A DNA stretch of 51,707 nt, filler included, from Jimgerdemannia flammicorona (taxonomy: Eukaryota): NCBI GenBank assembly GCA_003990765.1. It is 2 parts of 2 records of this genome, joined end to end, with 100 filler letters (N's around TTAATTAATTAA, not from the genome) between each part and the next. Parts side by side here need not be neighbours in the genome. Positions count along the whole stretch, not along the records: positions 1 to 25,809 come from RBNJ01000790.1; 1 more part is not named here. One strand, 5' to 3'. Positions 6,071 to 51,707 of the stretch are shown piece by piece. The position numbers were made by a program, and so were the translations under genes. Numbering within the stretch: position 1 is the stretch's first letter; each line of letters starts with the position of its first letter. The notes beneath the pieces were generated by a model. It was given only the letters and a program-made list of their open reading frames with translations, had not been told where the DNA came from and ran no database searches.

Positions 6071-7175
6071 TATTACACTGAAGGCGTAGAGGGTGTTCAC
6101 GGAAACGGGACTATTTATTGCCTCTAATTATAATTAATCGTAGCCCCATTTGGATACGACGTTTCCGATTACGACATACGCACAGTAGTTGGTGGTTATT
6201 AATGGCCTTCTGCTGCGTAATATTTTCATTTGCTTGGCAACTAATTTGGGATTAACTCGCAGTGAGGTACGCCGTCCCGAGTCAAAAATTTGTGTGGGCT
6301 GAATGTGATGAACCAGGGGTCAATGAGCTAACTATAGCTAGCTAATCAGGTCAGGCAAGTAAATTTGCCAATGAGGAAAAATAATCACTTCCATATGGAA
6401 AAAATGCAAAACCCCACCTGGAAAAAATACAGAAAAATATGAAATCTTAATAAAAATGAGCAGGTTTTGTCAGCCTTGAGATATCAAGAAAAAGCCACAT
6501 CCAAGCAGGTTAACAAGAGTCATACAGAATTATTTTCACTAAGGTATATAACTGAGGTACACTGACTTCTATTATTATTTTTACAATCAAAAATCCATAT
6601 TAATGAAAATAAATATATTGAGCATATTCTCAAGTTCCTGAAGCAATACCTATATTAATAGTTTGATATAGATTTATAAAAAAAATTATATTATAATAAT
6701 ATCTTTTGTGAAAGATAAGAAATTTTGGTAAAAATTGATGATAGTTAAAAAAAATATATGAAACCCAGTTATATATTTATATTATAATATTTTTATAAGT
6801 TCATTATATGAAGAAATTTACAGAATTCATCAAAATATATATAAATATTATATAACTATAGCTTAAAAGATTGAGATGTATCAATTTTATATAAATAAAG
6901 AACAAAATATAAAGAGTAATAAATTTCAGTATAGTCATATAGTAATTATACTATTCACTAATAGAAATATCATAATGTCTTCATAAGTTTAGAAATCTAT
7001 AGAATTTAGTAAAAATATATATAAATACTATATAACTATAGCTTAAAAGGTTGAAATGTACTGATTTCTAATTATAGTTATATAATTTAGTCCTAAGTAA
7101 TAATTTATAATATAAGATAATAATTTAAAAAGCTCAAGACCCATTAAGAGGTTCAATATATATCTCTTTGACTGT

Positions 7176-7642
7176 TGTGATAGTATAGCCAGATTTGGAA
7201 GAAGAAAATAGAGAACAGACACTTAATCGCACCTAGTCCCAAAGTAGTATAGCCACATAGTTAGCAGTCCTCAATTCTGCCATTTACTAAATATTTCACA
7301 AAGTGCAAGATCGAGCTTCTCGATTTAGTATAGCATTTCGCAACTGGGGAAATATTTTTCAAAGTATTAAATGATTCATAACTTAGCCATATAACCCAGT
7401 AACCATCTCATAGCTAGCAAACTTATATAAATAACCCAGGATCTTCGAGTGAATAAACCTCAGATCAAAATAGTTCAAAGCAAAGAGATAGCAAAGGAAC
7501 TAGTAAGCCTGTGGGCAGATACACTTCGAACTCACCCACCCTCCCCTGCAACTTCAAGAGACTCTGCGAGAGTCAGAACAGTCAAGTTTTCAAGATACAG
7601 AAATCCGACGTACTTTTAAGAGTAAGCATCTGCTATGTTACA
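7176..7642 (+). repeat. 5' LTR of A1 (467 bp)
   Basis: tgtgatagtatagcc...ctatgttaca; matches 13422-13855 apart from a ~33-bp indel and transitions. Confidence 0.95.
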
Positions 7643-7756
7643 ACTTGGTGCCCATTGGCTGGTGATTCAAGACAAATCTCTCACTTTTAAGCTGAACAAT
7701 GAACAACTGCCACTACCCGAACAACCACACAAACCAAGCCCCAATATCTAGACAAG

Positions 7757-10700
7757 ATGGATATAAGACCACCAGTATTCTATGGATATCTCAGACGAAT
7801 CAATCATCACCTTTATTGATGATTTCGAACAGTATGCTGTGGTAAGAACCCTGATAGCAGCACAGCAAGTAGCCCTCATGCCATTCAGCCTACAAGGTCC
7901 TGCTAGAGCAGCATTCACAGCTGCAACCTATACAAGAAATGATGCCGATACTATACTAACAGTACAGAAGACCTGGCTCTGTAATATATATTATACAGAC
8001 AAGATCAAGCAAGCCCTGAAGGATCAGCTCAATACAACATGCCAAGGAATGAGCGAGAATCTAAATATATTCTATACCAGAATTCGATATCAGATAATCC
8101 TTACAGATTATGCTGCTGCTATCCAAGATCAAGTAGCCAAAGCAATCTTCATAAAAGGAGTCTATCCAGAAATAGCCATGGCCATCTGCTCATCACCAGT
8201 GATTCTGGATCTGCCACAAAAGGTCACCTATGCTCAGCAATACTGGATAGCCAGACACCCACAAGACCATATAATGGAGAGAGTTACAGGAGTCAGAATC
8301 AAAGTACCCAAGACAACCAGTGTGATCTCTACCACAATGATCAATCGAAACACACCTCAGCCAAAAGCTACAGAGCAGCAAAAGAACAGTGACCCTATGG
8401 AGGAACTTGCCAAAAGGTTTGCCAAAATGACTGCCCACCTGGGAGATGTGGTAAAGGAAATTCGAGGAAGAGACCACTGCCCTGTTCAGAAGTTTACCAC
8501 CACTTCAGATAAGAAGAAAGGTACCTGCTACAGCTGCAGAGAAGAAGGCCACTACTCTTATAAATACATGAGCGAAATAAAGTGCAAGGCTCAACCAAGT
8601 AATGCTATACGAAACAAGGAGCAGGCCAATACAATCACCTTTGAAGAAATCAGAGAATCTGATGAAGAGGAATGGGAGGCCTATCCTGCTCAGACCACCA
8701 AGAAGGATGTTCGCAAAGAACCCTACAAGAGACTACCAGGAAGACCCAAGAAGAACCCAGTGGAAAAGCAGATGGAAACTGCCACAGAAAGCCAAGCTGA
8801 AGAGATGGACCAAGATATAGAGCTGGAGCAAGTAGTTTAAGATATCATCTGAGAAACCACTCCAGCCAGTGAAGGAGAAAAAGAAAAGAAGTTTTGCAAG
8901 ACCAAGACCTTCAAGTATGATATCTTCAAGGACCTCAGTCAACAAAAGGTCAATACAACCTTTGGTCAGCTTGCAGAAATCCCAACATTCAGACAGCAAA
9001 TGAGATTTGGACTTGCCGAAACAACTAAGGAATAAGAATAGAAGATAACTGAGACCAATAACATTCAAGAGGACTTAGGAGAAGAAAGTGAGGACAATCG
9101 CAAAACCTCTGCATATGCAACATGCCAAATCGAAGATAGAATCTTTGAAGCCATCATCAATATGGGAGCAGGAGGATGTCTCCTCAGCAAGAAGGCAGCA
9201 GACCACCTAGGTTGGAATATGGAAGAAGCAACTAAGCTGGTGTTTATCACAGCCAATAGCATAAGAGCCATATCTCTGGGAAAGATCCAAGATGTTCCCA
9301 TCAAGATTGGAGGAGCAACAATCCCAGTAGATGTAATTGTAACTAATGCCACTAACTATGACATCCTCATCAGCAATTAATGGCTTCACAAAGCCAAGAC
9401 AGTAATCAATCTCAATGCCCAGAAGATGCAGATCACCTACTGGGGACAGAAGATACAAATTCCCATTAATGTCAACAAAGGAGTCCTGCCTGATATGGAG
9501 GAAGAAGAGAGCGAGCAAGAGGAAGCTTATATGGTGACTACTCCAAAGAAGAAGAAAGTTGGATGGATGAGTGAAGAAGAATGGTATAAGAAGATGGCAG
9601 AAGGCTATGCACCACAAGGAGTCTGTCCTTATGGGATCAAGATGTACTGTATAGAGCATATCAATGATTGCTACCAGTGTACCATCGGAATCAGGAAGAT
9701 CCACCAGGAAAGAAGACAGAAAGCTCTTGAAAAACAGATCAGAGAAGAAGAGAAGGAGGAAGATGATGAACCACCAGCTCTCCTAGAGGACAGTGATGAT
9801 GAAGAAGAAATCAAGGTCAAGATTCGAAAGATCCACCCTGATGTAGTCTTGCTGGAATATAAGTCAGAAAATGCAGCTGGAATGGACATCACTACAGTAG
9901 AAGAGACTGTACTGGAATCCCAGACAACCACCCTACTTGCAACTGGACTAGAGATGACCATCCCAAAGGATCATATCAGGATTCTCAAGACAAGAAGCAG
10001 CCTGGCTAGAAGCGAAATCACAATCGAAGGAGGAGTCATCGATTCAAACTATACTGGAGAAATTCTACTCATTACTAGGAATCACAATCCTACAATCCCA
10101 TTTCCAGTCAAGAAGAAGGACCAATTGGTACAAATGTTGATCTTTCTGATACTACAACCAAAGATCATAGAAGTTAAGAAGCTGGAGGAAACAAAAAGAG
10201 GAAAGAAAGGATTTGGATCTACAGGAAGAGGAGTATTCACCAACATCAAGATCACTGAACTCAAGCATAAGAAGGAGAAAAACACAAGCAAGCACAGCTA
10301 CACCATTGAAAATGAATTTCCACTCAAGAAAGAACTCAAGGAAATACTCTACAAATTTAAAGATATCTTTGCCACAGATTTCAAGGATATCAAAGGAAAG
10401 ACCCCATACTACTATCATGAAGTAGATACTGGAGACACTGAACCAATTTATCAGAAGGCAAGACCTGTCCCACCAGCCTACCAAGAATGGCTTAGAGAAG
10501 AAATCAAGCAGATGGAAGAAGCTGGCATCATTAAAGAAGCAAGCAGCCCCTGGTCCTCACCTGTTGTACTAGCCCCCAAAAAAGGCAGCAAGCCTGGAGA
10601 ATTTGCCCCAAGACTCTGTGTTGACTACAGAAAGCTCAACATGGTTACCAAGAAGGATCGCCAACTACTGCCCCTCATCAATGACATCCTCATAACACTG

Positions 10701-11732
10701 GAAGATGAAGTACAGTACTACAGCACTTTGGACTTATACTCAGAATTCCACCAAATCAGACTCACAGACATGGCAAGTGAAAAATCAGCTTTCATCACCC
10801 CAGATGGAACCTACGTCTACCTATGAATGCTATTTGGAATGTGCAATGCACTAGCAAGTTTCCAGCAAATGATAAACAAAATCTTCTACTATGATATGGG
10901 AAGATAGATGATGGTCTATGTTGATAATGTAATCATCTACAGCCAGACACCAGAAGAATACCTGCAGCACATCTGGCAGATAATGGAAAGACTGAGAAAG
11001 CATGGCCTATACATCAAGCCCAAAAAATGCAAATTCGCAGAAATCAAGATCTCCTATCTCAGCCATATTATCAACCAAGATGGAACACACATGGACCCCC
11101 TCAAGATACAAGTGGTGGCAGTATACCCAAGACCCACCACTGTTATGGAAGCCCAAGTCTTCATGGGACTTGCCTCCTATTATCACAGATTTATTAGAGG
11201 ATTTTCTAATATTGCAGGACCAATCTATGAACTTAACAAGAAGGATACCAAGTTCCAGTGGACTGGTAGACAACAAAAAGCATTTGATGAACTCAAGGTC
11301 AGACTGACCCAGGCACCCATCCTCAGAAGACCTGACTGGACTCAAGAATTCATCCTACAGACTGATGTAAGTGTACAAGAACTAGGAGTAGTCCTAGCTC
11401 AAAAGAAAGATAAAGTAGAGTATGTCATCTCATACCTCAGCCACAGAACTCGAGGAGCTGAAAAAGAATATGAATCCTACAAGTTGGAATACCTCACAGT
11501 TATCTGGGCCATAGAAAAGTTCCACTACCACTTGGCCAGAAGACACTTCATCATCTAAACAGACTACTCAGCTCTCATCTGGCTACTGACAACCAGACAA
11601 CCCAAAGGAATCTATGTCAGATAGATAATGAAGTTGCAAGCTTATGACATAACCATCGTACACTACTCTGGAAGAACCAATGCCAATGCAGATATCCTCT
11701 TATGAACATCCCAAACTACCTCCAACCAATAA
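7757..11732 (+). pseudogene. A1 gag-protease-dUTPase-RT-RNase H polyprotein (one frame after a 2-nt deletion near 7789; in-frame stops)
   Basis: Start MDIRPPVFYG inferred from the sister copies; zinc knuckle CYSCREEGHYSYKY; protease AIINMGAG (from DTGA); RT SPWSSPVVL..RLCVDYRKLN..YVDN; RNase H LQTDVS..ANAD. The provided ORFs at 7782, 9162, 9426 and 10908 share one frame. Confidence 0.93.
9810..10226 (+). other. dUTPase domain of family A, between protease and RT
   Basis: AAGMDI, TRSSLA, GGVIDSNYTGEI, DQLVQM, RGKKGFGSTG correspond to the five trimeric dUTPase motifs. Confidence 0.95.
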
Positions 11733-11739
11733 ATCAATC

Positions 11740-12933
11740 ATGAATAAGGAGTTCTATTATGGAATTATCACATATCTGGGACAGTGAAAGATGCCCCAAT
11801 ATCTGGAAGAATGGATACAAATGATTATCAACAGAACATGGAAATAATTCAAAACTGACGGAGAAATACTAAAGAAAGAAAAACTACTAGTCATACCAGA
11901 ACATAAGAAGGAGCAAGTGATGAAATCAGTATATGAACTTGGCCATCTAGGAGGAACGAATATATATGATAAGGCAAGAAGAACAATATGGTGGCCAGAG
12001 ATAGAGGAAGATATCAGACAATTCATCAAGACCTGTGACAAATGCCAGAAACAGAAACAAGACCAACAAAATCGAGCCCCAGGATCAGCACATATAGAAC
12101 TAGTACTATTTACCCACATTGCAATAGATGTAATCGGCTCTCTACTCTTGACTTTGACTGGTAACTGATACATCATCATCATCATAGACCTTTTTACAAA
12201 ATAGATAGAAGCAGGACCCCTCATAGAAGTCAATATATAGTTAATCGCTGATTTCTTCTACAAGGAAATCATCTACCAGTTCAAGATCCCAACACAAGTA
12301 ACTACAGATAGAGGAACAGAATTCATGAACCAGTTCTTCGAAGTTCTCTACAAGAAGTACAAGATCCAGCATATCCAGATCACAGTATATCATCCTTAAG
12401 GAAACAGACAAGTAGAAAGGACCAACAAAACTCTCAAGAACATTATTACCAAGATCTGTGATAACTATGAGAACTGGGATCACTATCTGCCAATAGTATT
12501 ATTTGCTCTCCAGGATATCTGATCACAAAGTATCCACTTTACCCCTTGAGAAATGTTATTTAGAGAAGAATGTTCTCAGGGAACCCTATCTTTCAATAGA
12601 GATGCTGTATGGAAACATATGGACATGGAAATATGGAGACTACACCAAATCAGGAAGAAGGCTGAAGATTACATAACCAAGGTACAGATACTACAATAGA
12701 GGAATGTGGAAAAAACCCACAAATTCTTGGAGATTATCAAGATAGGAGACAAAGTTCTAGTATATCAGAATATGATAGAAGCTTCTTGGTCACGAAAACT
12801 GGAGCCCAAGTGGGAAGGACCTTACCTGGTGCAAGATATAAAAGGGACCACCTTTTGGCTATAAAAACCCTCAGGCACAATAATCCCCACTACCATTCAC
12901 CGAAACTGACTCAAGAAATATCATGGCCAGTAA
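11740..12933 (+). pseudogene. A1 integrase (own ATG, different frame from RT-RH; in-frame stops)
   Basis: GHLG..CDKCQ zinc finger, IAIDVIG, TDRGTEF, QVERTN and a GPY/F module (LEPKWEGPY); no chromodomain. Confidence 0.92.
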
Positions 12934-13426
12934 CAAAAGTACTGCAATGGCACTCAAGATCACTAGTGCTGTCCAAAGAGCCATCGAGAGATAATGGTGC
13001 ACCACCAAGCCTCTGACCATAGAGGAGTCCTATGACAGTATCCAAAGCATTGTACAGGCTCATCTCTCTTGGATCTCACACTTCAAGGCCTATCAGCATC
13101 GAAATTAATTCCAAGAGTACTTTAAACTTGGCCAAGTTCTCAACCAAGACCCAGAAATGACCAAAGAAAATTGGATTGCAGAATGCTAGCTCTCCTATTC
13201 TCAGATCACCATTGCTAAGAGAATCCACAAGCTATTCTGAGAGAATGAATCAGCATTAGCCCACCTGCAAGGAGTGACTCTCTCAGACTTCGACTGAGTC
13301 AGGCAACACTATTGGGAAACAGTAATGCAACAAATCACACAATATAAGACCATACAGACCATTGAAGCTTGGGAGTTTGAATAGATGCTTCAAGGATGAG
13401 ATCATCTATTCAGGAGGAAGTTGTGA
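12923..13426 (+). pseudogene. A1 accessory ORF3 (167 codons, 7 in-frame stops), unknown function
   Basis: ATG overlaps the integrase end and the frame runs into the 3' LTR. FQEYFKLGQVL..IAKRIHKLF*..LAHLQGVTLSDF aligns by eye with the family C LTR ORF. Confidence 0.7.
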
Positions 13427-13855
13427 TGGTATAGCCAGATTTGGAAGAAGGAAATAGGGAACAGACACTTGATCGCACCCAGTCCCAAAGTAGTATAGCC
13501 ACATAGTTAGGCAAAGTGCAAGATCGAACTTCTCAATTTAGTATAGCATTTTGCAACTGGTGAAATATTTCACAAAGTGTTAAATAACTCATAACTTAGC
13601 CATGTAACCCAGTAACTATCTCATAGCTAGCAAACTTGTATAAATAACCCAGTATCTTTGAGTGAATAAACCTTAGATCGAAATAGTTCAAAGCAAAGAG
13701 ATAGCAAAGGAACTAATAAGCCTGTGGGCAGATATACTTCAAACTCACCCATCCTCCCCTGCAACTTCAAGAGACTCTGCGAGAGTCAGAATAGTCAAGT
13801 TTTCAAGATACAGAAATCTGATGTACTTTCAAGAGTAAGCATCCACTATATTACA
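13422..13855 (+). repeat. 3' LTR of A1 (434 bp)
   Basis: tgtgatggtatagcc...ctatattaca, followed by TSD ctgt. Confidence 0.95.
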
Positions 13856-14199
13856 CTGTAGATAAGATTGTCTTTTAAAATAATTTAGCAGATAAATTAA
13901 AGTTTGAAAAAATGATTTTTTGAAATATTGTTTTTTTGTTAAAAATATATCTTAATTTGCTTAAAAAAAAAATTTACTAAAGATAGAATTATTATATAAA
14001 AAATTATTGGTAATTTTTTTTTTTTAAAAACTATTATAATTTTAAAGTTATAAACTTTTAAAATCTTGTCTTGAAATATAGGTACAAAATAGTCAAAGAG
14101 ATATATTATATGGATCTTATTATAGATTAATAAGTAGCATATATCTGACTTAACATATATATGTATCATTAAATTACTCATATTATAGCCAGTATATGT

Positions 14200-14640
14200 A
14201 TGGCTTATATATAGTAAGCTCAATACATGTATAGTGAGCTTATATTGATAAGTAGCATATGTCTGACCAAGCTTTCATCAATATATTATCATGAGAATTA
14301 ATTGTTTATATTATGACCAATATATATAGTAAGCTCAACATATATATAGTAAGTATATATAGTAAGCTCAAGCTCAGTATATATATAGTGAGCATACATT
14401 AATAAGCAATATATATCTGGTCAAGCTTATTTGTATCTACTTATCAATATAAAAGCACCTCTCTTATTCTCTCCACTTTTTCATTCTTATACTTACTCAT
14501 GCTTACACAATTATTATTATATTGTTATATTACACTCATATTTATCACTCATGCTTATTACTCATATTCATACTTATTACTCATACTTACACTCATACTT
14601 ATTGCTCATACTTACACTCATGCTTATTACTCACTATCAT
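14200..14640. repeat. Low-complexity tandem repeats
   Basis: Repeated tatatagt(a/g)agctca and ctcat(a/g)ctta units. Confidence 0.7.
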
Positions 14641-17600
14641 AATATATAAGTCAAACTATTAAAATCTACTCAATCTATCTACTCACTCATATCTACTATT
14701 TAGAAATATAACATCTAATTAAGCTCAAGATATGTTCTCTATGATCTGCTATATTAAACTTCTTAAGAAATACAAAGTCAAAGTATTCTGATCAGAAGAG
14801 AATGATCAAGCTTGAGCTTCTCAGATATATAATTGTTGTTAATATGTAGTCAAATGAGGAGGAATAAGAAAATACCCTCAAGAAGATATCTGAATATATG
14901 GGTTTTGACTTAGAAGTGATGATTGCAAAATACAGTAAGATATATATTGAATTATTACTATATATTTATCTCTTTCTTATTTTATTTAATTATCTTTCAT
15001 TCATAAATTATAGTTTGACTAAGCAATATGAGGAGACAGATTTTTGAAGTTGTCAAATCCAATCTTTTCTCCAAATTTACTTCTATTCTTTTAAATATTT
15101 TCAACCTTAATAAGAACTATTAATTCAGATAGTTAATACTTAACTCTGATAAGATGCTTATGGCTTATGAAAAATACAACCCTAAGTTCAACCTTTCAAT
15201 AAATTAAATTGATAGAACATTTGACCTCAATGCTGCTTAATAAGTGAAGTTCAAGAAGTATACAATTAATCAGATCTATACAGGCTCTACTTCAAAGAAA
15301 TAATTTAGATTATATCATAGGTTGAAGAGGTTACAAAGTTTAGTCCAAATATATCAACTAAAGACATTAGATAGAAGAATAGTAGCTTTTGCTATTATCA
15401 TGATAAATTTATATGATATTAATATTTTTCACTTATAGATTATAGAATCTAATTATATTTTATTTATTTTGGATATATATTGCTATCATAAGATCAAAGT
15501 TCAAAAAACTAATTTGGAAGGCTTAGTATGAGAATATTCTTACAATAATCAATAGAGTTGACTTGCAGAAAATATACTAATAATTGGATATAGCCTGGAC
15601 TACTATAATTAAAACATAAGAAAAGTTTAGAGATGGAGAAATATTAGGTCTAAGTGAAGAAGATCATAAGTATATTTTTGCATTATATCTATCAAAATAA
15701 ATTTTATATGAATAATTAACAGCTTATATAGTTTTAAATAATTAGATACTCTCTGAATTCTGAAAAAATATAAATAATACTATATGAATAATTAGATTCC
15801 CTCTAAATTCTAAAAAAAAAATGTAAATAATAATATATAAATAATAATATTATAATTTATATAAATATAAATATATACTTCTAAATGGCGATTTTATATT
15901 TCATTTCTCAGAATAAATATGATATATTAGAAATTAGTAAAAATAAGCTATTCTTTAGCTTAAATTTGCTATTTATTAGTATATTCAGCTGATTTTTATC
16001 AAATTTAAATTTAAATTACTTACTAATATAATCTATGAATATATTTATTTAAAAAGGAGATTCTTTAGTACTATTAATAAATGGTTTATAAGGCTTTATA
16101 TAAAGATCTCTAGAAGTATGATAGATATTATTTGTGCTAACCATATACTATACATATTATAATAGTCAAACTATCAAACTCAATACTCCATCTACTCCAA
16201 ATATACAACTGTTGAATATCCTATTTTGGACTTATATAATGATACTAGTACTGTCATCCATCTTTTTAAAAAGAGTGAGTATTATAAAGATATTACTTTA
16301 TATAATCTGTATTATATAAATCACTCTCAAATCAATCCTTAAATATTAGATAAAACAAAGAATCATATATATAAATATGATTATACTTATTAACTTTGGT
16401 AAAAAGTATATCTGGCAAATTACTATAGTGGACTTTTTAGTTCAAATAGGTATGAATTGAACATATGTACTTTATGTAATCATTATAATATAAATAAAAT
16501 AGTTATATTCCTTTAGATACATGATAGAGATTATTAGTTCAAATGAAATAGAGTTATCAAAATTAAAGTTAATAAGTGAAACTTACCACTAATTTGATGG
16601 GTTTTGTGAAAATCTAATGTTAAGATAATTTGTATTCTATCTAATATATATATATTTAATATATCTCTATTATATCTGCAAAGCTTCATTACTATATAAA
16701 AGATAAAGAAATATAAATAAATAAATACACTATGATATATTAATAATAATATATATTTGACTGATATTAAAAAAAATAAATAAAAATATTTATATATTAT
16801 CTAGCTCCAATTATATCTTTTATTTGACAAAGTATATGAAGAGCTTTTATATCATTACTTGTCAATACTCAAACAAATTCAATATTATTACTTATTTGTA
16901 TCTTATACTTATATAGACTCTATATATATCTACTGACTTTTGTAAATAATAATCCATTTCTTCTCTATATAGTATCACATAGTAGTCGCTGAGTCCTTCA
17001 AATATATCAGATTCTCCAAGGTATATCTCTTAGACTAACCTCAAGTTTGTTATAAGTAAGTTCTTATTAGAGTATCTTCCCAAGGTCTTATAGTTCTCAA
17101 ACTTCTTATCTTTAAACTATCTTGTTATCTTTTAGATTACTTATGTGGAATTAAGGGTAAATAAACTGGAACTGACTTTATTTCAAAGAAAATAAGAGAG
17201 GTATTTATACAAAATATAATTCAATAGTTTGCTAAGTTATAAAGCTAAATATAAATTCTAATAACTAAATAAAATACTGGAATACAGAAAACTATGGTTG
17301 TAAGTATAAGTTTAAGTATCTATATAAATAGTTGTATAAGTTCAGAATATCAGCAGAATTTTAGTGGTATAGAAAAAGAATATCAGAAGAATTTCTGAGT
17401 TATGTAAGATCAGAATGCCAGAAGAATAATAGTTATATAGGAAAAGAATACTAGTAGAATCTGGTATTACTAAGAACTTAGAGCAAAAAGTTCAGGACTA
17501 TAGGGGCTTTATCTTCATTACTATCATTAAGGCTAGAGGTTGGAGATAAGATGTCTTCGAAGGAGATGAGGTCTACAAACAATTTATCTGTTTTATATGT

Positions 17601-19668
17601 GTCATGTATTTTGCATATATTGCACATTTTGCATAGGATGATATTATTGCCAATGATGTCATTATGGGTGATATTATCTCATTTAGTTAGGGGGAAAGCA
17701 AGGAGATCTAGGGCTCTTCAATCTATAAGATTCTCTTTCATAAAATAAGGGACAAATGTGGGGTCTTAGAGAGATCTAACTTAGATGCTGGGGCCTTTAA
17801 ATGCTGAGATCAATCCTTGTAGGAATTGATCAAGATTGTCTTTGAAGATAGGGTTCCAGAACTCTCCTATCTTATTACTGTTGAGGATGATAGTAGACTA
17901 GACTTCTGTGACCACTATGGCCTCCAGTATATTGATACAGCAGACTGATAGTTTCTTGAAGTCTGAGGTTCTAGTATACTCCAAGTTGGGAATTGATCAT
18001 AGTATATACCTGAAGATCTGATGGATCTTCTTGGCTATTCTTATTTTGTATATATCTATGAGAGTAGCATTTTATATTTATTAGTAACTGGCCTGAGAGA
18101 ACTTCCAGTAGAGGAGATTTTCTATTTCATACTCCTGCCACATCTAGAGGTATTTTGTAATAATTTCACAGTCATATTTAGTCTTAGTATATTTTTCACA
18201 TCTTTTAGTCAGTCTTTTCTTATTATTTCTTGAATATTCTACTATGTTCTGTTATCTTCTACTTGCTTAGAAATCTTCTCTCAGTACCCAGATACCACTA
18301 GAACATTCTTGTCTTTCTTTGGTGCCAAGTATCTTATCTTAACTAGTCATAGAATCTTTTGGAACATTGTAGAATAGTATTAGTCAGCTTTGCTGAGAAT
18401 CTATTTCTTGGTATTTCTCTTTCTTTCCAAGATCCTTCCAGATCTTTCTTTCAGATCATGTATAAATATCCTTGTTCTCTGCCTGAATAAAGCTCAGAAT
18501 ATTTTCTCCTAGAAATCTTTTGAGAACACTTGAACCTTTAAGTATCTCTTCAAGCTACTTTAAACCAACTAGAACTTCCAGATTTAGCCACTTCCTCTTA
18601 AAGAAACTAGAACTATTACACTTGGTAGCAGTGGTGTTATTATACCTTGCCTTATTAAGAAACCTCACACAAATTCGGAAACCAGTCACAACTAGTCACA
18701 TAAACCCGAAATGAGCCACGAAGAGACAGTTTATTAGCCAGACCCCTCTGCTACAGAAGAAGTAGAAGGATTGCAGCTTAACATAGAAGATATGATTAAT
18801 GCTAATTCAAGAACTGCAAGCACAACTAAAAATACAAACTATGGGAACATCAAATCCTACTATAGCACTAGTTAGTTTCAAGTCACTCAAGCCAGATACC
18901 TTTGATGGCCATCAAGGAGAACTATCTATAGATGCATGGACCTTTCAGTTGGACCAATACTTCAAACTCACAAGAATGGAAGATAATATGTAAGTCCAAT
19001 TTGCCACCACACTTCTCCAAGGAAATGCAGCTATCTGGTGGCACAATTATATTATGGTTATATCTGTATACTCATATGTATGAATCAGAGATTGGGAAGC
19101 TTTCAAGAGAGCCCTTCACAAGCAGTTCAAGCCTGCTAATGCCACCAAGCTAACCAGGGATAAGCTAGTAAATATCAAGTAACTCAAGTCTATATAAAGC
19201 TACAATGCACAATTCTTGTCAATCCTACTTGAGCTACCAGTAGTATTTAAGGATAAAAAGATAGACTGCTATGTCCGAGGTCTGAAGAAAAACACATAAG
19301 TCAAGATCAAGCTAGAAGAGCCCAAAACTCTTAATGAAGTCATAAGAATTACTAATAAATTTGATATCATTATCTTTGGCAACCACTTTGAACCAGAATG
19401 CCACAAAAAGAACCACTTCAAGAACTGCTACAGAAACCAACCAAGGACAGTTGGCCTGGCACCAATGGACTTAGATACTATGAACAAAAAGAACACCAAG
19501 CTCACCCCTGAAGAAAAGGACTATCTGAAGAAATCTGGAGCTTATTTCTTCTATTGCCAAACAGGACACATTGCAACAAAATGTCCTAGGAAGACTAGCA
19601 AATCCTTACGACCAGTCACTGTGTTGTCCAAGGACACATCTGTCAATCCCACTATCAGTCAACTTGAG

Positions 19669-20079
19669 CTTAAGGTCAAGAAGCTTTATCTGAAGGCCCA
19701 GGTCTCTCAATATCAAACAGAAGGAGCCATTGATCTTGACCTACACTCAGTCAAACAAGTCACTATTTCAGTCAAGGGCTATACTCTGATACCTACTGAA
19801 ATTTCAGTTCAATACCCTGAAGAATATTATACTAGAATTGTACTGTGATCAGGACTCAGTATCAAACATCATTTGGATATAAGTACTAGTATCATTGATC
19901 CAGACTTTTGAGAATAAGTTCAAGTCTTGCTTATCAATCAGAAGGATCAAGACTATACAGTTAAAGAAGAAGACTGAGTTATGCAAATGATTCTGGAAAG
20001 AGCCAGTCAACTCAAGATTACAGAAGTCCAAGAACTCTCTGAAACCAAATGAGATCAAAAGAGTTTCAGTAGTACTGAT
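19669..20079 (+). other. dUTPase domain of family B, between the gag zinc knuckle and protease
   Basis: LKVKKL..GAIDLDL..*SGLS..SIIDPDF*E*V..ED*VMQM..TK*DQKSFSSTD are degenerate versions of AGxDL, RSG, GVIDxDFRG, GDRIAQ and RGxxGFGSTG, in frame with gag and PR. Confidence 0.85.
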
Positions 20080-23000
20080 CAAGCAGCAAGTCTTAGTGAT
20101 AATCAAGCTCAAGCTATACTCATTTTCAAAGGACTAGTTAAAGGAAAAGAAGTTCAAGTACTTATAGATAGTGAAGCTACAAAGAACTTCATTAATCAGA
20201 ATCTCATCAAAAGCCTCAAGATCCTCACCAAGTCTATACTTAAAAATAACAGTATAGTCACTGCAGACAGTACTCTACACTCCATTGAGTCAATTGCCAC
20301 CAAACTGCCCATCAAGATCCAGAAATATTGGGAATGAGTAGACTTTGAAGTTGTATCACTAGGAGATCATGACTTGATCTTAAGAAAACTCTGACTCATG
20401 AAACATAATCCAGATATTGATCAGTATAAGAATGAAGTCACTCTACTTCAAGATGGAGCCAACATTACTATCAAGACAGACAAGACCACAAGTAAGACCC
20501 AGATTGCAACACTGTCAGCTATACAGTCCAAGAAAGTACTCAAGAAGACAATACATGCCTTTATTGTAATGATCCACCCCAAGAAACAAGACAAGAGACT
20601 ATCAGTCAATAAAAGCATCAAGCTATTGCTAGAGGAATTCAAAGATGTCTTTTCAGACAAGCTACCTAGTCTACCACCTATACGAGAAGTTGATTATGAA
20701 ATTGAACTGACCCCCAGAGCTATACCACTTAAGAAACACATATACTGTATGTCATCACTTAAAATTGAAGCAGTTAAGAAGGAACTAGAAGAACTACTTG
20801 CACAAGGAGCCATTCAGCCAAGCAAATCTCCTTATGGCTCATCAGTCTTATTTATCAAGAAGAAGGATGATACTTTGTAAATATATATAGACTATTATAC
20901 ACTCAACAAACTCACTATCAAGAACCACTATCTACTACTCTTGATTGATCAAATATTTGATGCTCTCAAGAATGCCAAGTACTTCACCAAGTTAGACCTC
21001 ATGTCAGGATACCACCAGATCTGAATCAAGCCAGAAGACATTCTCAAGACTGTATTTATAACCCCCTTTGGACTCTACAAATTCCTGGTCTTAGCATTTG
21101 GTCTCACCAATGCACTTGCCACATTCTAGACTCTGATGAACAAGATATTTAAGGACCAACTATTTATTTTCCTATTGATATATCTTGATAACATTCTGAT
21201 CTTTAGTGCAACTAAAGAAGAATACCTTAAACATATTCAAATAGTTCTGGAGATCCTGCAAAAACACAAGCTTTATACCAAGCTCAAGAAGTGTAAATTC
21301 TTCAAGGAACAAGTTGAATACCTTGGCCACATTGTCTCTGTACAAGGAATTCAAGTAGACCCATACAAGATAGAAGTAATTGAAGAATGGCTCATTCTGT
21401 TGAACCTCATAGAACTCCAATCCTTCCTTGGTCTAGCTGGCTATTACCACCACTTTGTCAGAAACTTCTCTGGCATTGCCAAGCCACTGACTAACCTCAT
21501 GAGGAAGGCCCCATACTCAGACCACTATATATCTTATACATACCTGGGACCTCTTCTGTCAACAAGCCTTTCAAGAACTCAAGAACTATCTGACTCATGC
21601 TCTAGTTCTACATAATGCAGATCAAGGCCTAAAATTCATAGTTACTACTGATGTATCAAAATTTGCCATTAGAGCAGTCCTATTACAAGATAATGGCAAA
21701 GAATATCACCTTATTGCTTTTGAGTCCCACAAGCTGGCCCTAGCTGAACAAAAGCTAGCTACTTATAAGAAGGAACTGCTAGCAATAATACATGTACTAG
21801 ATTACTGGCAATGCTATCTAGAAGGTGTTGAGTTTAATGTCATTACTGATCATCAATCTCTCAAGTATATTAACACCCAACCTACTCTATTATGTCTATA
21901 AGCTAAGTAGAGCCTCAAGCTTCAAACCTTCAATCTGACAATCATCTATAAGTCTGGCAAGACACTTATAATACCAGATGCCTTATCAAGATACCCAGAC
22001 CTCATCACAATTATGCAAGTCACCTTGGCATTAGAATTTCTAGACCAAATCAGGCAAGCTTATAAAGAAGATACAGTTGCCACTAGAGTTTTTTCAAATG
22101 AACTCAAGGATATATATACTATTGAGAACAATCTGATCTATCATCAAGACAAAGTCTACCTACCTAAAAACATAAACCTATGCTATAAGGTTTTGCAAGA
22201 ACACTATGATTCCCCTCTTGCTGGTCACCTGGGAATTGAAAAGACCATCAAGAACATCCAATGATGCTATTATTGGTCAAATATAATTAAGGAAATCAAG
22301 AACTATGTTGCTAGCTATGATCTATATCAGCACAATAAGTCTACCAACCAAGCATCTGCCAGTTTGCTATAACTACTGCCAATTTCTACCAAGAAGTTCG
22401 AGTAAGTCACTATGGACTTTATAACTCAACTACTATAAACTCAAGCTGGTGCTGATACTATCATCATATTTATTGACTACCTGACCAAGACTATGATTGC
22501 TGAACCAACCACTACCAATGCTACTGCACTCAAGATTGCAAGAATCTTTTTCAAGTCTATCTTCTATCACTATGGTCTACTATGAGTAATTATTGGCAAT
22601 CATGACCCCAAGTTCACCAGCTACTTCTGGAAAACCCTCTTCAAGACTCTGGGAACTTAATTGGCTATGTCTACTGCCTTTCACCCACAAACTGATGAAC
22701 AAACTGAGTACATGAACAGAACTCTAGAACAAATGCTTAGAAACTATGTTTCTTATAAGCAAGATGATTGGGACATCTATTTGACTTATATAGAGTTTGT
22801 ATATAACAATGCTGTCCAATTATCTACTGGTCTTTCTCCTTTTCAGTTACTCCATGATCAAGATCCCAAGACTCCTGCAAGTCTATTCCCTTTCAAGAAA
22901 ACCAGTCAAATATAAGTCTCAACTGCTAAGAACCTTACAGACAAAATGGGCAAACTACTCAAGATTGCTACCATGAATCTTCAGAAGGCTTAATAGCATC

Positions 23001-23311
23001 AAGTCAAGTATACTGACAAGAAATGCTGTGATGTCATCTATACTATTGGAGATCAAGTCTTACTATCTACTGAGAACCTCAAGATATAATCTCAAGTCAA
23101 CCACTCTTTGAATAAGTTCCAACCCAAGTATATTAAATCTTTCGAGATCACTGAACAAGTCTCTGCATCTTTCTATCACCTCAAGCTACCTGAAATCATG
23201 AGAGTATACCCAGCCTTTTATATATCACACCTCAAGACCTGAAACCAGTCACCACCCTACTCTGGTCAAATTTCTAAGCCTTCTGCCCCTGTAATTATTA
23301 AAGATTATATT

Positions 23312-23460
23312 GAGTATAAAGCTGAGAAAATTCTTGACAAATAAATCTGTTACTACCATTCTGAATATCTAGTCAAGTGGATGGATTACTCTGAATATAA
23401 TGCTACCTAGAAACCACTGGTTAATCTTAAGAACTCTCAAGATCTAGTTCAAGACTTTGA
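23312..23460 (+). other. Chromodomain at the integrase C-terminus of B1
   Basis: EYKAEKILDK..EYLVKWMDYSEYNAT*KPLVNL. Confidence 0.9.
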
Positions 23461-24771
23461 GGTAAAATACATTGCCTAATCTCTATAGTGACTTTCTTAG
23501 ATTATTGATGACCTATAGCAATGACCAGTGTCTTATACATTGGAAGTTTACTTTGGAACTCCAGAATCAGTAGAACATTTAATAAACAAAAAGTCTATTG
23601 AAATGAAGCTACTAGCTGGATTTAAATTCCTCCCAGTTGGTTAGTCTAGTAATAGGCCCTCTGTCCTATATAAGGATAATCAATTCTCACTAATACACCG
23701 ATTCAAGTTTGAGAAATTTTGGTTAAGTATATCTAGTCTTGTGTTACCTAAAAATTCAATAAGGACATTGGTTCTTAAAGAGGGAGAGATGTGTAATAAT
23801 TTCACAGTTATATTTAGTCTTAGTATATTTTTTACATCTTTTAGTCAGTCTTCTTTTGTTATTTCTTGAATATTCTACTATGTTCCATCATCTTCTACTT
23901 GCTTAGAAACCTTCTCTTGGTGCCCAGACACTACTAGAACATTCTTGTCTTTCCTTAGCACTAAGTATCTTGTCTTAGCTAGTTATGGAACCTTTTGGAA
24001 CATTGTAAATATTCTTATTCTCTACCTGAATAAAGCTCAGAATATTTTCTCTCAGAAATCCTTCAAGAACACTTGAACCTTTAAGTATCTCTTTGAACTA
24101 CTTTAGGCTAACTAGAACTTCCAGATTTAGCTACTTCCTCTTAAAGAAACTAGAACTGTTATATATTTAGTAGTAATAGTGATCCTTGTTTTCATTTTAT
24201 GGTGGTAGAGAATATAATTATAGGGGTCACCAGTATCCAGGTTAAGACTAAGAGTCCTTCTTGTACAGGTTCTCATAGCTCTTCTGATGTCTTAGAATAT
24301 TCTTTCCTAAACTATAGGGCCTTAGTAATTCCTGGACCTTGAGGTTTGATGAGCAATAGGCATTTATTTATAGTAAGTCATTAGAACTATTTCAGTAAGC
24401 TTATTTAGGCTATTGCTACTGTGGTTTCTTGATCTTTCTTTTATATTCCTCAAGATATCTGTCTTGTGGTCACAATGACTCATAGTTGGTCATAATTACT
24501 CATCTTATAGCCTGGATGAGTCATGCTATATGATCTTCTTATACTCTAATCTGATGGCTTATAAGGAAAGGCTGTCTTCTATGCTGATGTCATCATTCTG
24601 AGGTCACTATTATATCTTTCTCCTGAATAAGGATCTTCTCTTAAATGTTCTTATTCATTGGTCCAATCTAAAAAATTTGCTAATCTCATAATCTCTAACA
24701 GGAGATTGAAAAGTGATATTTATAGGCTGATATCTTCTCTATATATTTTGGCATGATGGTGAAGGGTTGCT

Positions 24772-25809
24772 CTCCAGCGCTCCTTTCTCTGCTACCTTAC
24801 CGGTCACAAGGTTTGGTAGGCGACCTTCCGAGTCCCCTTTCCCCTATTATTACCCCCTCTACCTCGGGTTGGTTTGCTGTGCCTGCAGGGGCATGGTGGG
24901 AGGAGGGCAATGGTGATGAGTTGCCCCTTTATCGGTGTCGGATCGGTGTCTTCTCCACTTTTTCGTGGTTTCTGGTGTCTTCGGCTGCATCTGGAGTGCA
25001 TCCGTTTTAGTGCGGTGCCTTCTTCCTTTTACCATCGTCAACAAGGTGCTGTCTCGGTGTGTCTCGGGCTACGTAGGAAGTCAGCCAACCTTGGGCGTCA
25101 AGTGCTCAGTATAGGTTACCTGCAGGTCCTCGGTGCCTGTGGTGGGGCCCTCTGGCTTTGGCGAGCTTCCCGGCGAGTGCAGTTCTGGTGTAGGTGACTG
25201 CTTTTCGGGTGATGTCGGGATGGGAGGGGAGATGGCCATCACAGATAGGAGGAAGGGCGATTACGGTGAACCAGTGGGGTACCAGGCTGGGGGCGGTCAT
25301 CGGGGCTGGGGTGGACAATATTTCGGTGGGGTCTTTCGATTGGCTGGTGGGGGGTGGGGTGGTGCAGGGGCCGGCATCCTGGCTGTACCCAACTGGAACC
25401 AGGAGCTGACGCGGCAACACGATCGAGGCCCACAGGCTTGGGGAGTGGGACCTTCCTCATTTGGCAGTACCCAACTGGAACCGGGAGCTGACACGGTAAT
25501 GTGATCGAGGCCCGCAGGCTCGGGGAGTGGGAGTGGGGTCTTTTTAGACCCTAGCCCATGTGTAAGTCCTTTGGGGAAGGTGCTGTGTGTAAGTCCTTTA
25601 CTCACCTGCTTTGAATCTACTTTGCTCTCTGTTGGTTGGTTGGGGGGTTTTTTCTTTGCCTCGGGCTTTCTTTTGGGGTTCGGGGGGCTATTCTTTATTC
25701 AGTCCCGGTGCTGCTAGATCCGACGTGTAGGTGTGCTCTCGCGTGTAAACGATGATCCAGCCCTGGTGAGCAGACAAGTCTAGTCTATGTCGTTGGAGTC
25801 GACGTAGCC
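24772..25809. other. GC- and CpG-rich unassigned segment with an 82-bp-period duplication (25385-25450 / 25467-25532)
   Basis: Abrupt compositional change at ~24772; no recognisable protein domain in any frame. Confidence 0.6.
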
Positions 25810-25909
25810 NNNNNNNNNNNNNNNNNNNNNNNNNNNNNNNNNNNNNNNNNNNNTTAATTAATTAANNNNNNNNNNNNNNNNNNNNNNNNNNNNNNNNNNN
25901 NNNNNNNNN
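25810..25909. other. Artificial assembly linker: N44-TTAATTAATTAA-N44
   Basis: 100-bp spacer carrying a six-frame stop cassette at 25854-25865. Confidence 0.97.
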
Positions 25910-25926
25910 AAAAAAAAAAAAAAAAA

Positions 25927-26632: not shown

Positions 26633-28632
26633 GTGCATAGGAACAGACTCAAGAAGTACTACAAACCTATATAAGAGAAGCAAAACATAATGATCACCTG
26701 TAAGGTTCTAGTCTGAAAATCATAACAGTATATCCTATAACCAGCAGACAATCTGTTTGGATCATTCTTTAAGGGATATGGTATCAGCAACTACTTATTT
26801 ATGAGACTTTTGAAGCCAGAAGAGTTCAAACCATCAACTGATTGGTCAAGATCAGAATCAGGCCCTTGCTCTATATGAAGATAGCAACTCTTCACCATCA
26901 TACCAAAATACATAGGGAAGACATTAGCCCATAAATACCACTTTTTAACCCCCTGCCAGAGGTTATGGGATTAGCAAATTTTTCAGGACTAGATCAATGA
27001 ATAAGGATATTCAAGAAGATCCTTATTCAGAAGGAAGATATAATGGTGATCTTAGAATAATGACATCAGTACAGAAGACAGCCTTTCCTTACAAGTCATC
27101 AGATCAGAGCACAAGAAGATTATATGGCATAACTTACCCAGGCTACAAGATGAGCAATGATGACTAACTATGAGTCATTGGGACTACAAAACAGATATCT
27201 CAAGGAATATAAAAGAAGGATCAAGGAACCACAGTAGCAGTAACTCAACAAGACCCACTAATTCTGAAATAGCTCAAAGACTTACCATAAACAAAATGTC
27301 TGCTGCTCACCAAACCTCAAGGTTAAGAAACCACCAAGGTCTCTCAGTCTAGAAAAGAATGTTTCAAGATATCTGAAGAGCTATAAGGACCTGCACCACA
27401 AGGACTCCTAGTGTCAATCTAGGTACTGGTGACCCTTATCATTATATTCTCTATCACTATAAGATGGAAACAAGAATCACCATTGCTACCAAATATCTCC
27501 AGATGTAGCAAAAATACAAAATAGGAAACATTATCTGTCAGGAATTCCCTCAAGCCAGCCCTCAAGAGTTACAAGATACCACTTCTATAGATATATATAA
27601 AATAAGAATAGCCAAAAAGATTTATCAGATCTTCAGGTATACACTATAGTCGATCTCCAACTTAGAGTATACCAGAGTCTCAGACTTCAGGGATCTGTCA
27701 GTCCACTGTATCAATATACTAGAAGCCATTGTGGCTACAGAAGCCCCATCCACTATTACTCTCAATAGTGATGAGATAAAAGAGTTCTGGTATCCTATTC
27801 TCCAGGACAACTCAGATCAATTTCTACAAGGATTGATCTCAGTATTCCAAGACCCAAGTATCTAGATTAGACCTCTCCAAGACCTCACATTTGTCTCTTA
27901 TTTTGTAAAAGATGACCTTATAGACTGGAGAGCCTCTGATCTCCTTGCTCTACCTATTACCAAATGTGATGACATCATTGGTGATGATGTCATCCTGCAC
28001 AACATATGCAAAATATACAATGAAGTATGTGAAATAGATGAAACATTCACAGACCTCATCTTCTTTGAGGATAGTGATGAGAGTGAAGCCCCCATAGTCC
28101 TGAACTTTCTGCTCTGAGTTCTTAGTGACACTGAATTCTGCTAGTATCCTTTTTTTGTATACATAACAGTTAATCCTTCTACTAGCATTCTGATCCTGTG
28201 TGACTCTGAATTCTTCTAGCATCCTTTTCCTATACAATCAAAATTCTACCAGTACTTTGAACTTATACAATTATCTATATCAATACTGAAATCTGTACCA
28301 ATAACTATAGTTTTTTATGTTCCAGTATTTTATTTAATTATTGGAATTTATATTTAGCTTTATATCTTAGCAATCATTGAATTATATTATATATAAATAT
28401 CCCTCTTATTTTCTTCAAAATAAAGTCAGTTCCTCTCAGTATAATATATACAATTCCTTGTAGGCAATCTAAAGAGATAATAAGACAGTTTAAAGATAAG
28501 AAGTTTGAGGACTATAAGACCTTGGGAAGGCACTCTAATAAGAACTTACTTATAACAAACTTGAGTAGTCTAAGAAATACACCTTGAAGAGAATTTGACA
28601 TATTTGAAGGACTCAGCAACCACTATATGATA
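26633..28632 (+). mobile_element. Family C 3' end (copy C2): integrase tail, PPT and ~1594-bp LTR (27039-28632)
   Basis: VHRNRLKKYY integrase end at 26633; PPT agaaggaaga, then tataatggtga (tgtaatagtga in copy C3 at 51053); similarity to C1 ends at ..atgata (28632). Confidence 0.88.
27296..28117 (+). pseudogene. ORF inside the family C LTR (~273 aa, 5 in-frame stops, no frameshift), homologous to A ORF3
   Basis: Four of the five stops are sense codons in copy C3. Indels versus C1 in the 3' third are 15, 9, 3 and 30 nt. tataaaag lies ~85 nt upstream in all three copies. Confidence 0.8.
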
Positions 28633-29485
28633 GTATATATATTTTGACACCCTGTCAATCCTGAGCATAGTTGTAATATACTTACTATACTCTGTCTTTC
28701 AATTATATTTTAGAATCTTATAGAATGAGAATATATCTATGGTAATCCCATCTGGACTCTTTTTTTTTTTTTATTTTATTTTTTTATTTTTATTATGCAT
28801 TACCAATTTTTGTACTACATTTATAAATATGTACAAACCTTGCATATCATCCTGTAATATAATCTTATATAGTTTGAAATATATTTCCACTTCTCTTACT
28901 CTCTCCCTTGAATCTCTCTCAGGATCCTAATATTTCATCAATACTTATATCTTATATTCAGTTTTTCTTTTCCTTTTTTTGTCTAGAAAGAGCATTGAAA
29001 ACTTTATTATGGTCAAGTGATATAGAGGTTCTCTTTATTCAAAGTATATCATCTCTATCTATATAAATATATTAGGTTTGATTATATTATTATTAACTAG
29101 ATTATATAATTTAGATTCTATAATAGAATAAATCTTTCAATCTGATAATTAGCTTGAAGTTATTATATTTATCTAAACTAAGACCCATAAAGGACATATA
29201 TTATAATTATCTCTTCATTTCCAAAAATGTCTAGGTTATTTATATATTGTGACGTATGGTATGAAATAGAAACAGGAAATAGACATTTGATCGTAGTACC
29301 TAAATCCGATTTCCAATTTAGTATAGTCTTTTACTGCGGACACTGCATCTAAAACATTATCAGTGAAACTCTTGTTACTTTCACGAATTTCAGATAGGAT
29401 TTCACATGAGATTCTACCTGAGAATTTCACATGAAAAGACTTAATACTTAGCCGCATATTTAGTAGCAGAATTAGCACACAAATC

Positions 29486-51052: not shown

Positions 51053-51707
51053 TGTAATAGTGACCCCAGAATAATGACATCAGCACATGAGACAGCCTTT
51101 CCTTGCAAGCCACCAGACCGGAGCACAAGAAGATCATATGGCATATGAGATGAGCAATGATGACCAACTGTGAGTCATTGTGACCACAGTACAAGCATCC
51201 TGAAGAATATAAAAGAAGGATCAAGGAACCACAGTAGCAGCAACCAACAAGACCCATCAATCCCAAAATAGCTCAAAGACTTACCACAAATAAAATACCT
51301 GCTGCCCACCAAACTTCAAGGTCAAGGAACTACTAAGGTATCTCAGTTGAAGAAAGGATGTTCCAAGACATCAGAAGAGCCATGAGGACCCACTCAAGAA
51401 GGACTCCTAGTGTTGATATGGGTACTGCAGATCTCTATCATTATATTCTCTACTGCTGTGAAATGGAAACAAGGATCACCATTGCTACTGAATGCCTCCA
51501 AATGTGGCAGGAGTATGAAATAGGAAACCTCCTCTGCCAGGAGTTCCCACAGGCCAGCCCTCAAGAGCTACAAGATACCACTCCCATAGATATATGTAAG
51601 ACAAGAATGGCTAAGAAGATCTATCAGATCTTCAGACATGTACCATGGTTGATTCCCAACTTGGAGTATGTTAGAGTCTCAGACTTCAGAGACCTATCAT
51701 CCTACTG
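51053..51707 (+). mobile_element. Family C LTR (copy C3) inserted into the RT of A3; runs off the window
   Basis: Starts tgtaatagtgac exactly where A-family RT similarity stops; matches 27039-27705; stop-free frame at 51337-51707. Confidence 0.92.

Follow-up and report, generated by a model that had tools for sequence, protein, structure and literature searches.

Genes that overlap the U3 region of the long terminal repeat (LTR), or lie within it, are familiar from the 3' ends of complex retroviruses, as in Tas/Bet of foamy viruses, sag of mouse mammary tumour virus (MMTV) and nef of HIV, and the Tas protein is an activator that binds DNA and carries an acidic activation domain. LTR retrotransposons, too, commonly carry extra genes, with a function known for almost none of them. 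In plants, the excerpted text of two reports (PMC7264820, PMC11963269) places accessory open reading frames (aORFs) between pol and the 3' LTR, antisense in Retand, Grande and RIRE2 (TRP28) and sense in env-like cases; the plant aORFs of known orientation given in those excerpts are env-like or antisense. The C. elegans Ty3/gypsy element Cer1 encodes CERV in the same interval, a 517-residue protein whose spliced mRNA has five exons, among them exons also used for gag; it is without homologues outside its genus and needed for export of genomic RNA, according to the excerpted parts of PMC10309623. For fungi, the extra gene brtn of the Botrytis Ty3/gypsy element Boty/BcGypsy1 is antisense, to judge from a title (PMC7264820 and PMC8365987, in excerpt). 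Here we describe ORF3, a gene at the 3' end of a Ty3/gypsy element in Jimgerdemannia flammicorona (assembly GCA_003990765.1), along with its relatives; the window analysed is a stretch of 51,707 nucleotides, filler included, joined from two parts of two records.

ORF3 is very probably an undescribed 3'-terminal accessory gene, encoded in the sense direction as a separate cistron, of one clade of Ty3/gypsy-type LTR retrotransposons. Self-comparison and domain scans reveal the window as a nest of eukaryotic LTR retrotransposons surrounding a short gene-like island. The gene occurs in an element designated A and in the LTRs of a family designated C, whose copies in the window are C1 (27039-28641, forward), C2 (51053 onward) and Crev, a reverse copy. 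The features concerned are these.

7176-13855, plus strand: element A, Ty3/gypsy, with LTRs of 467 and 434 bp (TGTGAT...TTACA) and a 4-bp target-site duplication, CTGT
7176..7642, plus strand: element A 5' LTR (self-BLAST 7174-7642 against 13420-13855, 86 %; CTGT flanks read)
7426 and 7452: TATAAATA and AATAAA, respectively, of the element A 5' LTR
7767..12933, plus strand: element A gag-pol, decayed, with gag 7767-8837, protease ~9042-9377, reverse transcriptase (RT) from 9381 and integrase 11848-12933
12923..13384, plus strand: ORF3 of element A, 153 codons and a natural TAG, in the +1 frame relative to pol
13412..13420, plus strand: element A polypurine tract AGGAGGAAG, alignable with those of C1, Crev and L002, a metagenome locus
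13422..13855, plus strand: element A 3' LTR, with TATAAATA at 13639 and AATAAA at 13665
27029..27038, plus strand: family C polypurine tract AGAAGGAAGA, preceding the C1 LTR
27039..28641, plus strand: family C LTR of ~1.6 kb, starting TATAATGG (the copy at 51053 starts TGTAATAG)
27296..28117, plus strand: C-type ORF3 homologue, 273 codons and a stop, with 6 internal stops; profile match E 2e-144
28392 and 28419: TATAAATA and AATAAA, respectively, of the C1 LTR, both 3' of the ORF
16966..24774, minus strand: Crev, an LTR (pieces 24774-24163 and 18159-16966) and a 160-nt internal stub
47407-51045: second A-like copy, 76 % identical to A, its RT interrupted by a family C LTR at 51053
51053..51707, plus strand: third family C LTR, inserted into the A-like RT and ending at the window end
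51295 onward, plus strand: C2 ORF, its ATG changed to ATA, open over 51337-51707 (P0001)

Element A contains decayed gag, protease, RT, RNase H and integrase regions, the last matching Pfam Integrase_H2C2 (E 1.3e-15) and rve (E 3e-7). Its ORF3 has the orientation of gag-pol and lies between the pol stop and the polypurine tract. The start codon, with A at -3 and G at +4, overlaps the pol stop (12931-33) in ATGGCCAGTAA, and the gene ends 27 nt 5' of the tract, with the LTR next. An earlier note on this DNA had taken the frame to run over 12923-13426. That frame reads as quoted there, with seven internal stops and a terminal one, but the extent of the gene was wrong: two intact metagenome relatives, P0017 (153 aa) and P0021, both end in EAWEFE at the position of the window TAG at 13382, so that the true gene is 12923-13384 with five premature stops, and 13385-13426 falls outside it. 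The premature stops are at codons 24, 62, 89, 106 and 125. Intact relatives have Q at codon 24 (8 of 8), E at codon 62 (11 of 11) and Q at codon 89 (9 of 10), while TGA stands at codons 106 and 125, positions at which R is one of the residues found in relatives. Position 12992 is C, giving CAA, in every covering contig of two public sequencing runs; the two runs matching the region are of DNA or unknown type (word shares 0.09 and 0.07), no RNA run being listed. For one of them, run X1, 158 of the 164 listed kinds of difference from the window are transitions, and in 102 a T or A in the window faces C or G. The window copy of ORF3 is a relic, no longer functional, whose mutations are mostly C-to-T transitions.

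Expression of ORF3 as a frameshift fusion with pol is impossible for C and, for A, conceivable but unsupported, because all eight N-terminally complete A-type proteins begin at the same Met. The nearest upstream in-frame stop lies 14 codons before the ORF3 ATG in the decayed window copy.

The proposal that ORF3 belongs to a shared protein family had come from its likeness to the family C ORFs at 27296-28117 and 51337-51707, which read as the earlier note quoted them. The likeness exceeds chance. A against C1 gives a Smith-Waterman score of 73, where shuffles have a mean of 29.6 and a standard deviation of 4.6 (z 9.5, reached by 0 of 1000), and A against C2 gives 55 (z 5.9, again 0 of 1000). 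Within the window, tblastn relates A to C at E 0.003. A profile of C-like proteins alone matches 13205-13345 at E 8e-5, and reciprocally a profile of A-type metagenome proteins alone matches C1 at E 0.017, C2 at E 0.082 and Crev at E 0.13; when the A-type and C-like profiles are compared directly, hhalign returns 91.8 % and E 7.2e-7 over 99 columns. The metagenome protein P0027/P0011 bridges the types, with WHDYEIGH like the C-like proteins and AIAHLQGVT like A. The first of the sequence blocks originally matched (RAI in A, RAM in C) stands 45 residues before QEY in both, but MAFFT and hhalign pair A residues 36-44 there instead. Two decayed non-coding stretches might resemble each other by accident, a thought invited by the many stops of the window copy and by the A and C DNA, which is not alignable over the ORF. 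The shuffle, hhalign and reciprocal-profile statistics refute this, as do the intact ORFs found elsewhere and the bridging protein, and chance likeness is thereby reduced to an extreme improbability.

A further, more decayed match, claimed for a family D at 39030-39760, did not survive. Neither tblastn nor profile A1 finds one at E<=10, larger profiles give only noise at E>=6, and the best of 12 frame-by-query Smith-Waterman tests has z 3.0 (4 of 200 shuffles). The best family D alignment spans 16 residues at 39779-39826 on the minus strand, outside the claimed interval. No pol-like sequence is detectable in 37000-45800, and a weak minus-strand match at 37373-37489 (tblastn E 0.036, profile E 1.2) was dismissed as noise.

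The search for relatives used a profile built from the copies in the window and two close matches, run against 1.84 billion representative proteins at a threshold of E<=1e-3, and further members came from word-indexed searching of 5.8 billion clusters. The profile search returned 10 proteins, nine of them of 49-342 aa, with no pol-fused form among the matches. P0010 (983 aa, tandem repeats), whose E of 5.5e-14 is summed over 11 weak repeats, was dropped as a non-member because BLASTP gives only E 1.9 per repeat. The A-type comprises 12 distinct proteins with intact ORFs, 61-83 % identical to P0017. Intact C-like proteins are P0014 (271 aa) and P0004 (247 aa), and more distant C-like lineages are represented by the ORFs of loci L001 (323 aa) and L002 (291 aa) and by P0007 (342 aa), P0027 (325 aa) and P0012 (286 aa). 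The family has about seven diverged lineages in total, and the reading frame is open in other copies of both types, as the earlier note had required. In the window itself, all three family C LTR copies carry the ORF. A metagenome scan gave only two loci, of 1.3-1.5 kb.

Every member is on an ENA or JGI metagenome contig of at most 3 kb, unnamed or called 'hypothetical protein' and without a precomputed Pfam domain, so annotation pipelines for transposable elements will miss the family. The absence of any recognised domain was confirmed: none of 25 members reaches any Pfam threshold, and a profile search of PDB gives no match at E<=10. A scan of IMG/VR with the A-type profile produced 200 pattern matches, none of them confirmed. 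For P0003, ESM Atlas offers nothing usable, its nearest clusters (scores 0.88-0.92) being unnamed or from phage. Nor does an origin from gag find support in hhalign of the family profile against element A gag (probability 0.2 %, E 0.33).

Selection on the gene, another expectation of the earlier note, is evident in the C-type ORF frame, where maximum-likelihood (ML) omega is 0.30 for C1-C2, 0.33 for C2-L001 and 0.52 for C1-Crev. The two off-frames of the same alignments give 1.05-2.25, and non-coding LTR segments give 0.64-1.01. Differences at codon positions 1/2/3 number 23/16/40 for C1-C2 (p 0.003) and 113/77/147 for C1-L001 (p 2e-5), against p values of 0.94 and 0.74 in non-coding controls. 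Gap columns number 0 in 369 nt of ORF versus 26 in 253 nt upstream. Because the NG86 estimate of dN/dS is biased by transition excess, with non-coding controls at 0.31-0.56, ML omega and the codon-position test were relied on instead. Among A-type sequences, one read fragment keeps IQSIV through three synonymous changes.

These results bear on the idea of a host gene captured once by transduction and carried without a role in the element. Transduction can give rise to accessory ORFs, according to the excerpted text of PMC7264820. No cellular homologue of ORF3, however, was found among the 1.84 billion representatives or, by word-indexed search, the 5.8 billion clusters; the family has diverged into its several lineages under coding constraint; and a leader just upstream of the ATG is conserved in C, L001 and L002. 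Passive capture is therefore highly improbable. The leader, GACTTACCACAAACAAA, occupies ~20 nt directly before the ATG in C (27276-27295), L001 (~48-68) and L002 (355-375), and the L002 and C proteins are only 43 % identical. It could be a translation-start context or some other cis element. A splice acceptor at this place was rejected, as the AG in L002 is not conserved in L001 or C.

The lineages differ in where the gene lies. In L002 the ORF stop is directly followed by AAGGAGGGAGGA, the tract, and TTGTAATAAG, the LTR start, as in A. The C1 ORF is wholly inside the LTR, 257 nt after the LTR start and 275 nt before the TATA box, and no polypurine tract follows the ORF in C or L001. The C1 LTR start at 27039 is a true LTR edge, since the copy at 51053 adjoins foreign RT exactly there; before the C1 tract stand ~160 nt of internal sequence (26880-27028) in common with the reverse copy. 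Crev is split by insertion of a chromovirus, element B, leaving ORF pieces at 24363-24160 and 18164-17481. After the C ORF come TATAAATA and then AATAAA, and a like module follows the L001 ORF, so that in L001 the whole gene is probably inside U3, upstream of the TATA box, as in C. In both layouts the gene is at the 3' end of the genomic transcript, and the side of the polypurine tract that it occupies determines whether reverse transcription copies it into both LTRs.

The TATA and AATAAA signals are 26-27 nt apart in the A LTRs (7426-7457, 13639-13670), in C1 (28392-28424) and in L001 (~1218-1250), a spacing that would put the polyadenylation signal right at the transcript start. A and L001 also share AGTGAATAAACC within this module. 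A, C and L002 have polypurine-tract and LTR-start sequence in common, and A can be aligned with C over the ~55 nt that lead up to the tract. The earlier note had envisaged a mobile gene shared by different Ty3/gypsy lineages. The family is real, but assignment to Ty3/gypsy is shown only for A, and hopping between lineages fits less well than descent within one clade: the shared tract, LTR-start and TATA-AATAAA sequences make inheritance the more parsimonious account. We conclude from these shared sequences that the lineages with the gene appear to be sister lineages of one clade.

The C-type layout also raises the possibility, which we consider unlikely, that every C-type LTR, solo copies included, is a complete gene cassette expressing a trans factor that switches on or protects related elements. 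It would draw on the 257 nt of upstream LTR, the conserved leader before the ATG and the LTR's own downstream polyadenylation signal. Were it so, the terminal repeats of the clade would maintain a distributed 'helper gene' that does not depend on gag-pol.

The protein has no transmembrane segment, in agreement with the earlier note: the maximum Kyte-Doolittle mean over 19 residues is 0.19-1.07 in seven of seven representatives, and with an N-terminus that is polar and basic they lack the hallmarks of env. AlphaFold2, given the family alignment, predicts an all-helical core of ~130 residues, its helices arranged in an order that the two types share. The predicted local distance difference test (pLDDT) score is 84-94 over residues 61-150 of the C-type and 80-88 over residues 41-110 of the A-type, and in the long forms disorder is predicted for the last 50-100 residues. 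The first 30 residues carry a net charge of +2 to +6 in four of six long forms and +1 in P0007 and P0012. Five of the six long forms have an isoelectric point (pI) of 4.5-4.9 and a strongly acidic second half, the exception being P0012 (pI 6.0, net charge -5). Acidic-aromatic motifs recur in the tails (DLISFED, DLIIFEDL, P.VLNF), and the short A form ends EAWEFE.

Tentatively, we favour the view that ORF3 is a trans-acting regulator of the element's own expression, a mechanism that we infer from architecture and position. Its translation would use a spliced or subgenomic message that is 3'-coterminal, or would re-initiate at the ATG overlapping the pol stop. Its compact helical core, preceded by the basic N-terminus, would bind LTR DNA or RNA of the element, while the acidic disordered tail, through its aromatic/hydrophobic motifs (DLISFED and P.VLNF, or EAWEFE in the short A form), would recruit host machinery. 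By analogy, such an architecture would be that of an activator like foamy-virus Tas. Counted in favour is that A lacks the chromodomain carried by chromovirus B.

Several points weigh against this account of the gene and its function. Evidence for the A-type amounts to ORFs that are open in proteins predicted from metagenome contigs, and it carries an ascertainment bias; selection was measured on C-type DNA only; and family C is known in the window from LTRs and the 160-nt internal stub only. The short A form has no long acidic tail, and an arginine-rich stretch in the N-terminal region of C is not conserved in other lineages. Foldseek gives no match at E<=0.001 in PDB or in BFVD, an exhaustive structural scan reaches at best Z 3.8 (C-type) and 5.4 (A-type), below the informative level for helical models, and no significant match to a DNA- or RNA-binding fold emerged from the structural searches. 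The sole Pfam hint of a helix-turn-helix (HTH), HTH_Tnp_Mu_2, is sub-threshold, in two of 25 members at E 0.031.

Among the weak fold matches of both models, the DNA-binding domains of ParB, KorB, SopB and VirB recur at Z 2.9-4.9 over 74-91 aligned residues. Over the conserved core, the C-type model scores Z 3.8 with VirB, 3.6 with SopB, 3.5 with ParB and 3.2 with KorB; the A-type model scores 4.9 with KorB, with 91 residues aligned, and 4.3 with SopB. These scores are below the helical noise level, the ParB-type rows do not stand above unrelated helical rows, and no sequence similarity was found, so that a relation to ParB-like HTH proteins, as suggested by predicted models, is a lead and not membership.

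The basic N-terminus and the position of the gene would also suit a cofactor for export or packaging of genomic RNA, comparable to Cer1 CERV or retroviral Rev, in which the helical core would bind unspliced element RNA and the tail engage host export or assembly factors. The CERV ORF holds the same position between pol and the 3' LTR (excerpts of PMC10309623), the C-type has its arginine-rich stretch, and a factor of this kind would be required by the unspliced RNA if splicing produced the ORF3 message. This role seems unlikely given that neither splice sites nor spliced reads were seen, that the arginine-rich stretch varies among lineages as noted, and that Foldseek and the structural scan found no RNA-binding fold.

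The mutational state of the repeats is relevant to the function suggested in the earlier note, that of an antagonist of host silencing or restriction, whose acidic tail motifs would capture a host defence protein. The observed/expected ratio of CpG is 0-0.18 in repeats versus 0.78 in neighbouring genes. CA and TG are raised in A and B (~1.1-1.2) but near 1 in the 47407-51045 copy and in the stretches richest in AT; TpA shows no excess (TpA/ApT 0.76 in A). The heavy mutation of repeats supposed by the earlier note is thus real in the form of strong CpG depletion, but it is not classic repeat-induced point mutation (RIP): loss of CpG with no excess of TpA, and differences that are nearly all transitions, point to methylation-linked CpG deamination instead. 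Separately, 14000-17000 and 38000-41000 have decayed to a GC content of 0.21-0.29. Counter-defence genes are often lineage-restricted and fast-evolving, as this family is, and several short acidic-hydrophobic tail motifs are conserved in position, which together with CpG-directed mutation would suit an antagonist. An omega of 0.3, however, is plain purifying selection and no arms-race signature, there is no similarity to any known suppressor, and the short A form lacks the long tail; we regard the antagonist as improbable.

The end of pol suggests one more role, that of an integration-targeting tether replacing the integrase chromodomain and binding both integrase and a chromatin feature. Element A pol ends LKKYHGQ and then TAA, right after the SH3-like domain and without a chromodomain; Pfam Chromo has no match in ORF3 or in the A pol frame through 13426. 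Chromovirus B has a chromodomain at 23315-23461 (PF00385, E 1.9e-8, 34.5 bits against a cut-off of 25.1) and, by profile searches of the window, no ORF3 homologue, and in A the ORF3 ATG overlaps the pol stop. But ORF3 is encoded as a cistron of its own, which in C is parted from pol by the tract, the LTR boundary and ~257 nt, and no chromatin-reader fold was found. A tether is decidedly unlikely.

The rest of the window holds further repeats and the gene-like island. Pfam finds no match in 35 further ORFs, nor do the Rfam and tRNA scans.

18156-24163: element B, a chromovirus with RVP_2, RVT_1, RNase H, integrase, SH3_Tf2-1 and chromodomain, and, at ~19700-19840, a stretch resembling dUTPase that falls short of the threshold (20.2 bits, cut-off 22)
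1034-2179: partial B-like RT/RNase H copy
45545-45724, minus strand: isolated SH3_Tf2-1 remnant (E 6e-7, 29.9 bits, just below the Pfam cut-off of 30 bits)
45858-46849, minus strand: reversed A-like LTR-gag fragment (80 % to 7369-8377), adjoining that remnant
40768-40944 with 45485-45309: short inverted repeats
30002-33659, minus strand: two long intronless ORFs, of 633 and 624 aa, amid repeats

C1 and Crev, each an LTR with the same 160-nt stub and tract, stand head to head within 16966-28641. In the 2.1-kb centre between them are a solo B LTR in reverse orientation (25950-26630) and two gaps of 44 N (25810-25853, 25866-25909), and the arrangement is either an inverted duplication or an assembly artefact. 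The island at 30002-33659 has a GC content of 0.46-0.50 and a CpG ratio of 0.78. One ORF of the pair carries LRR_6 repeats (E 1.4e-6); the other has its closest ESM Atlas clusters exclusively among bacteria (Pseudomonadota, Chlamydiota; some LepB_N or Sca4), with scores of 0.95-0.96, and a pattern scan of 185,579 prokaryote genomes found no close relative. A horizontally acquired gene pair and an assembly chimera are both possible.

Set beside the systems described at the outset, ORF3 resembles the plant aORFs, as excerpted, in being an extra gene between pol and the 3' LTR, apparently in whole families, one for which a regulatory or DNA-binding role is suspected. It differs in being sense and yet not env-like, having no transmembrane segment, and in lying inside the LTR in some lineages. 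No link by sequence or fold to any named domain was found for the family, the comparison with TRP28 being by description only. A literature search on the phrase 'ORF within the LTR' with retrotransposon found no report, though this is a weak check of novelty. With brtn, likewise compared by description from excerpts, ORF3 shares the status of extra gene in a fungal Ty3/gypsy element and differs in orientation, brtn being antisense. CERV, as its excerpted description has it, is another parallel, a lineage-restricted protein in the env position of a Ty3/gypsy element without homologues elsewhere, which acts in trans on its own element's RNA. The likeness is one of description, and members of the ORF3 family are shorter (153-342 aa) and apparently of a single exon.

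Tas/Bet, sag and nef share with ORF3 a 3'-end gene overlapping or in U3, and Tas in particular matches the architecture proposed here. They belong to vertebrate retroviruses with env, homology is not expected, and family C goes further than any of them in that the entire ORF, not part of it, is in U3. Among extra genes of LTR retrotransposons, the ORF3 family is a clean case, with a small, confidently predicted fold, no relative in Pfam, PDB or viral structures, coding constraint and about seven lineages. Its gene occurs on either side of the polypurine tract, so that reverse transcription copies it into both LTRs in some sister lineages and not in others, a natural contrast with which to study the function of such genes and the origin of U3-embedded genes such as sag, nef and bel.

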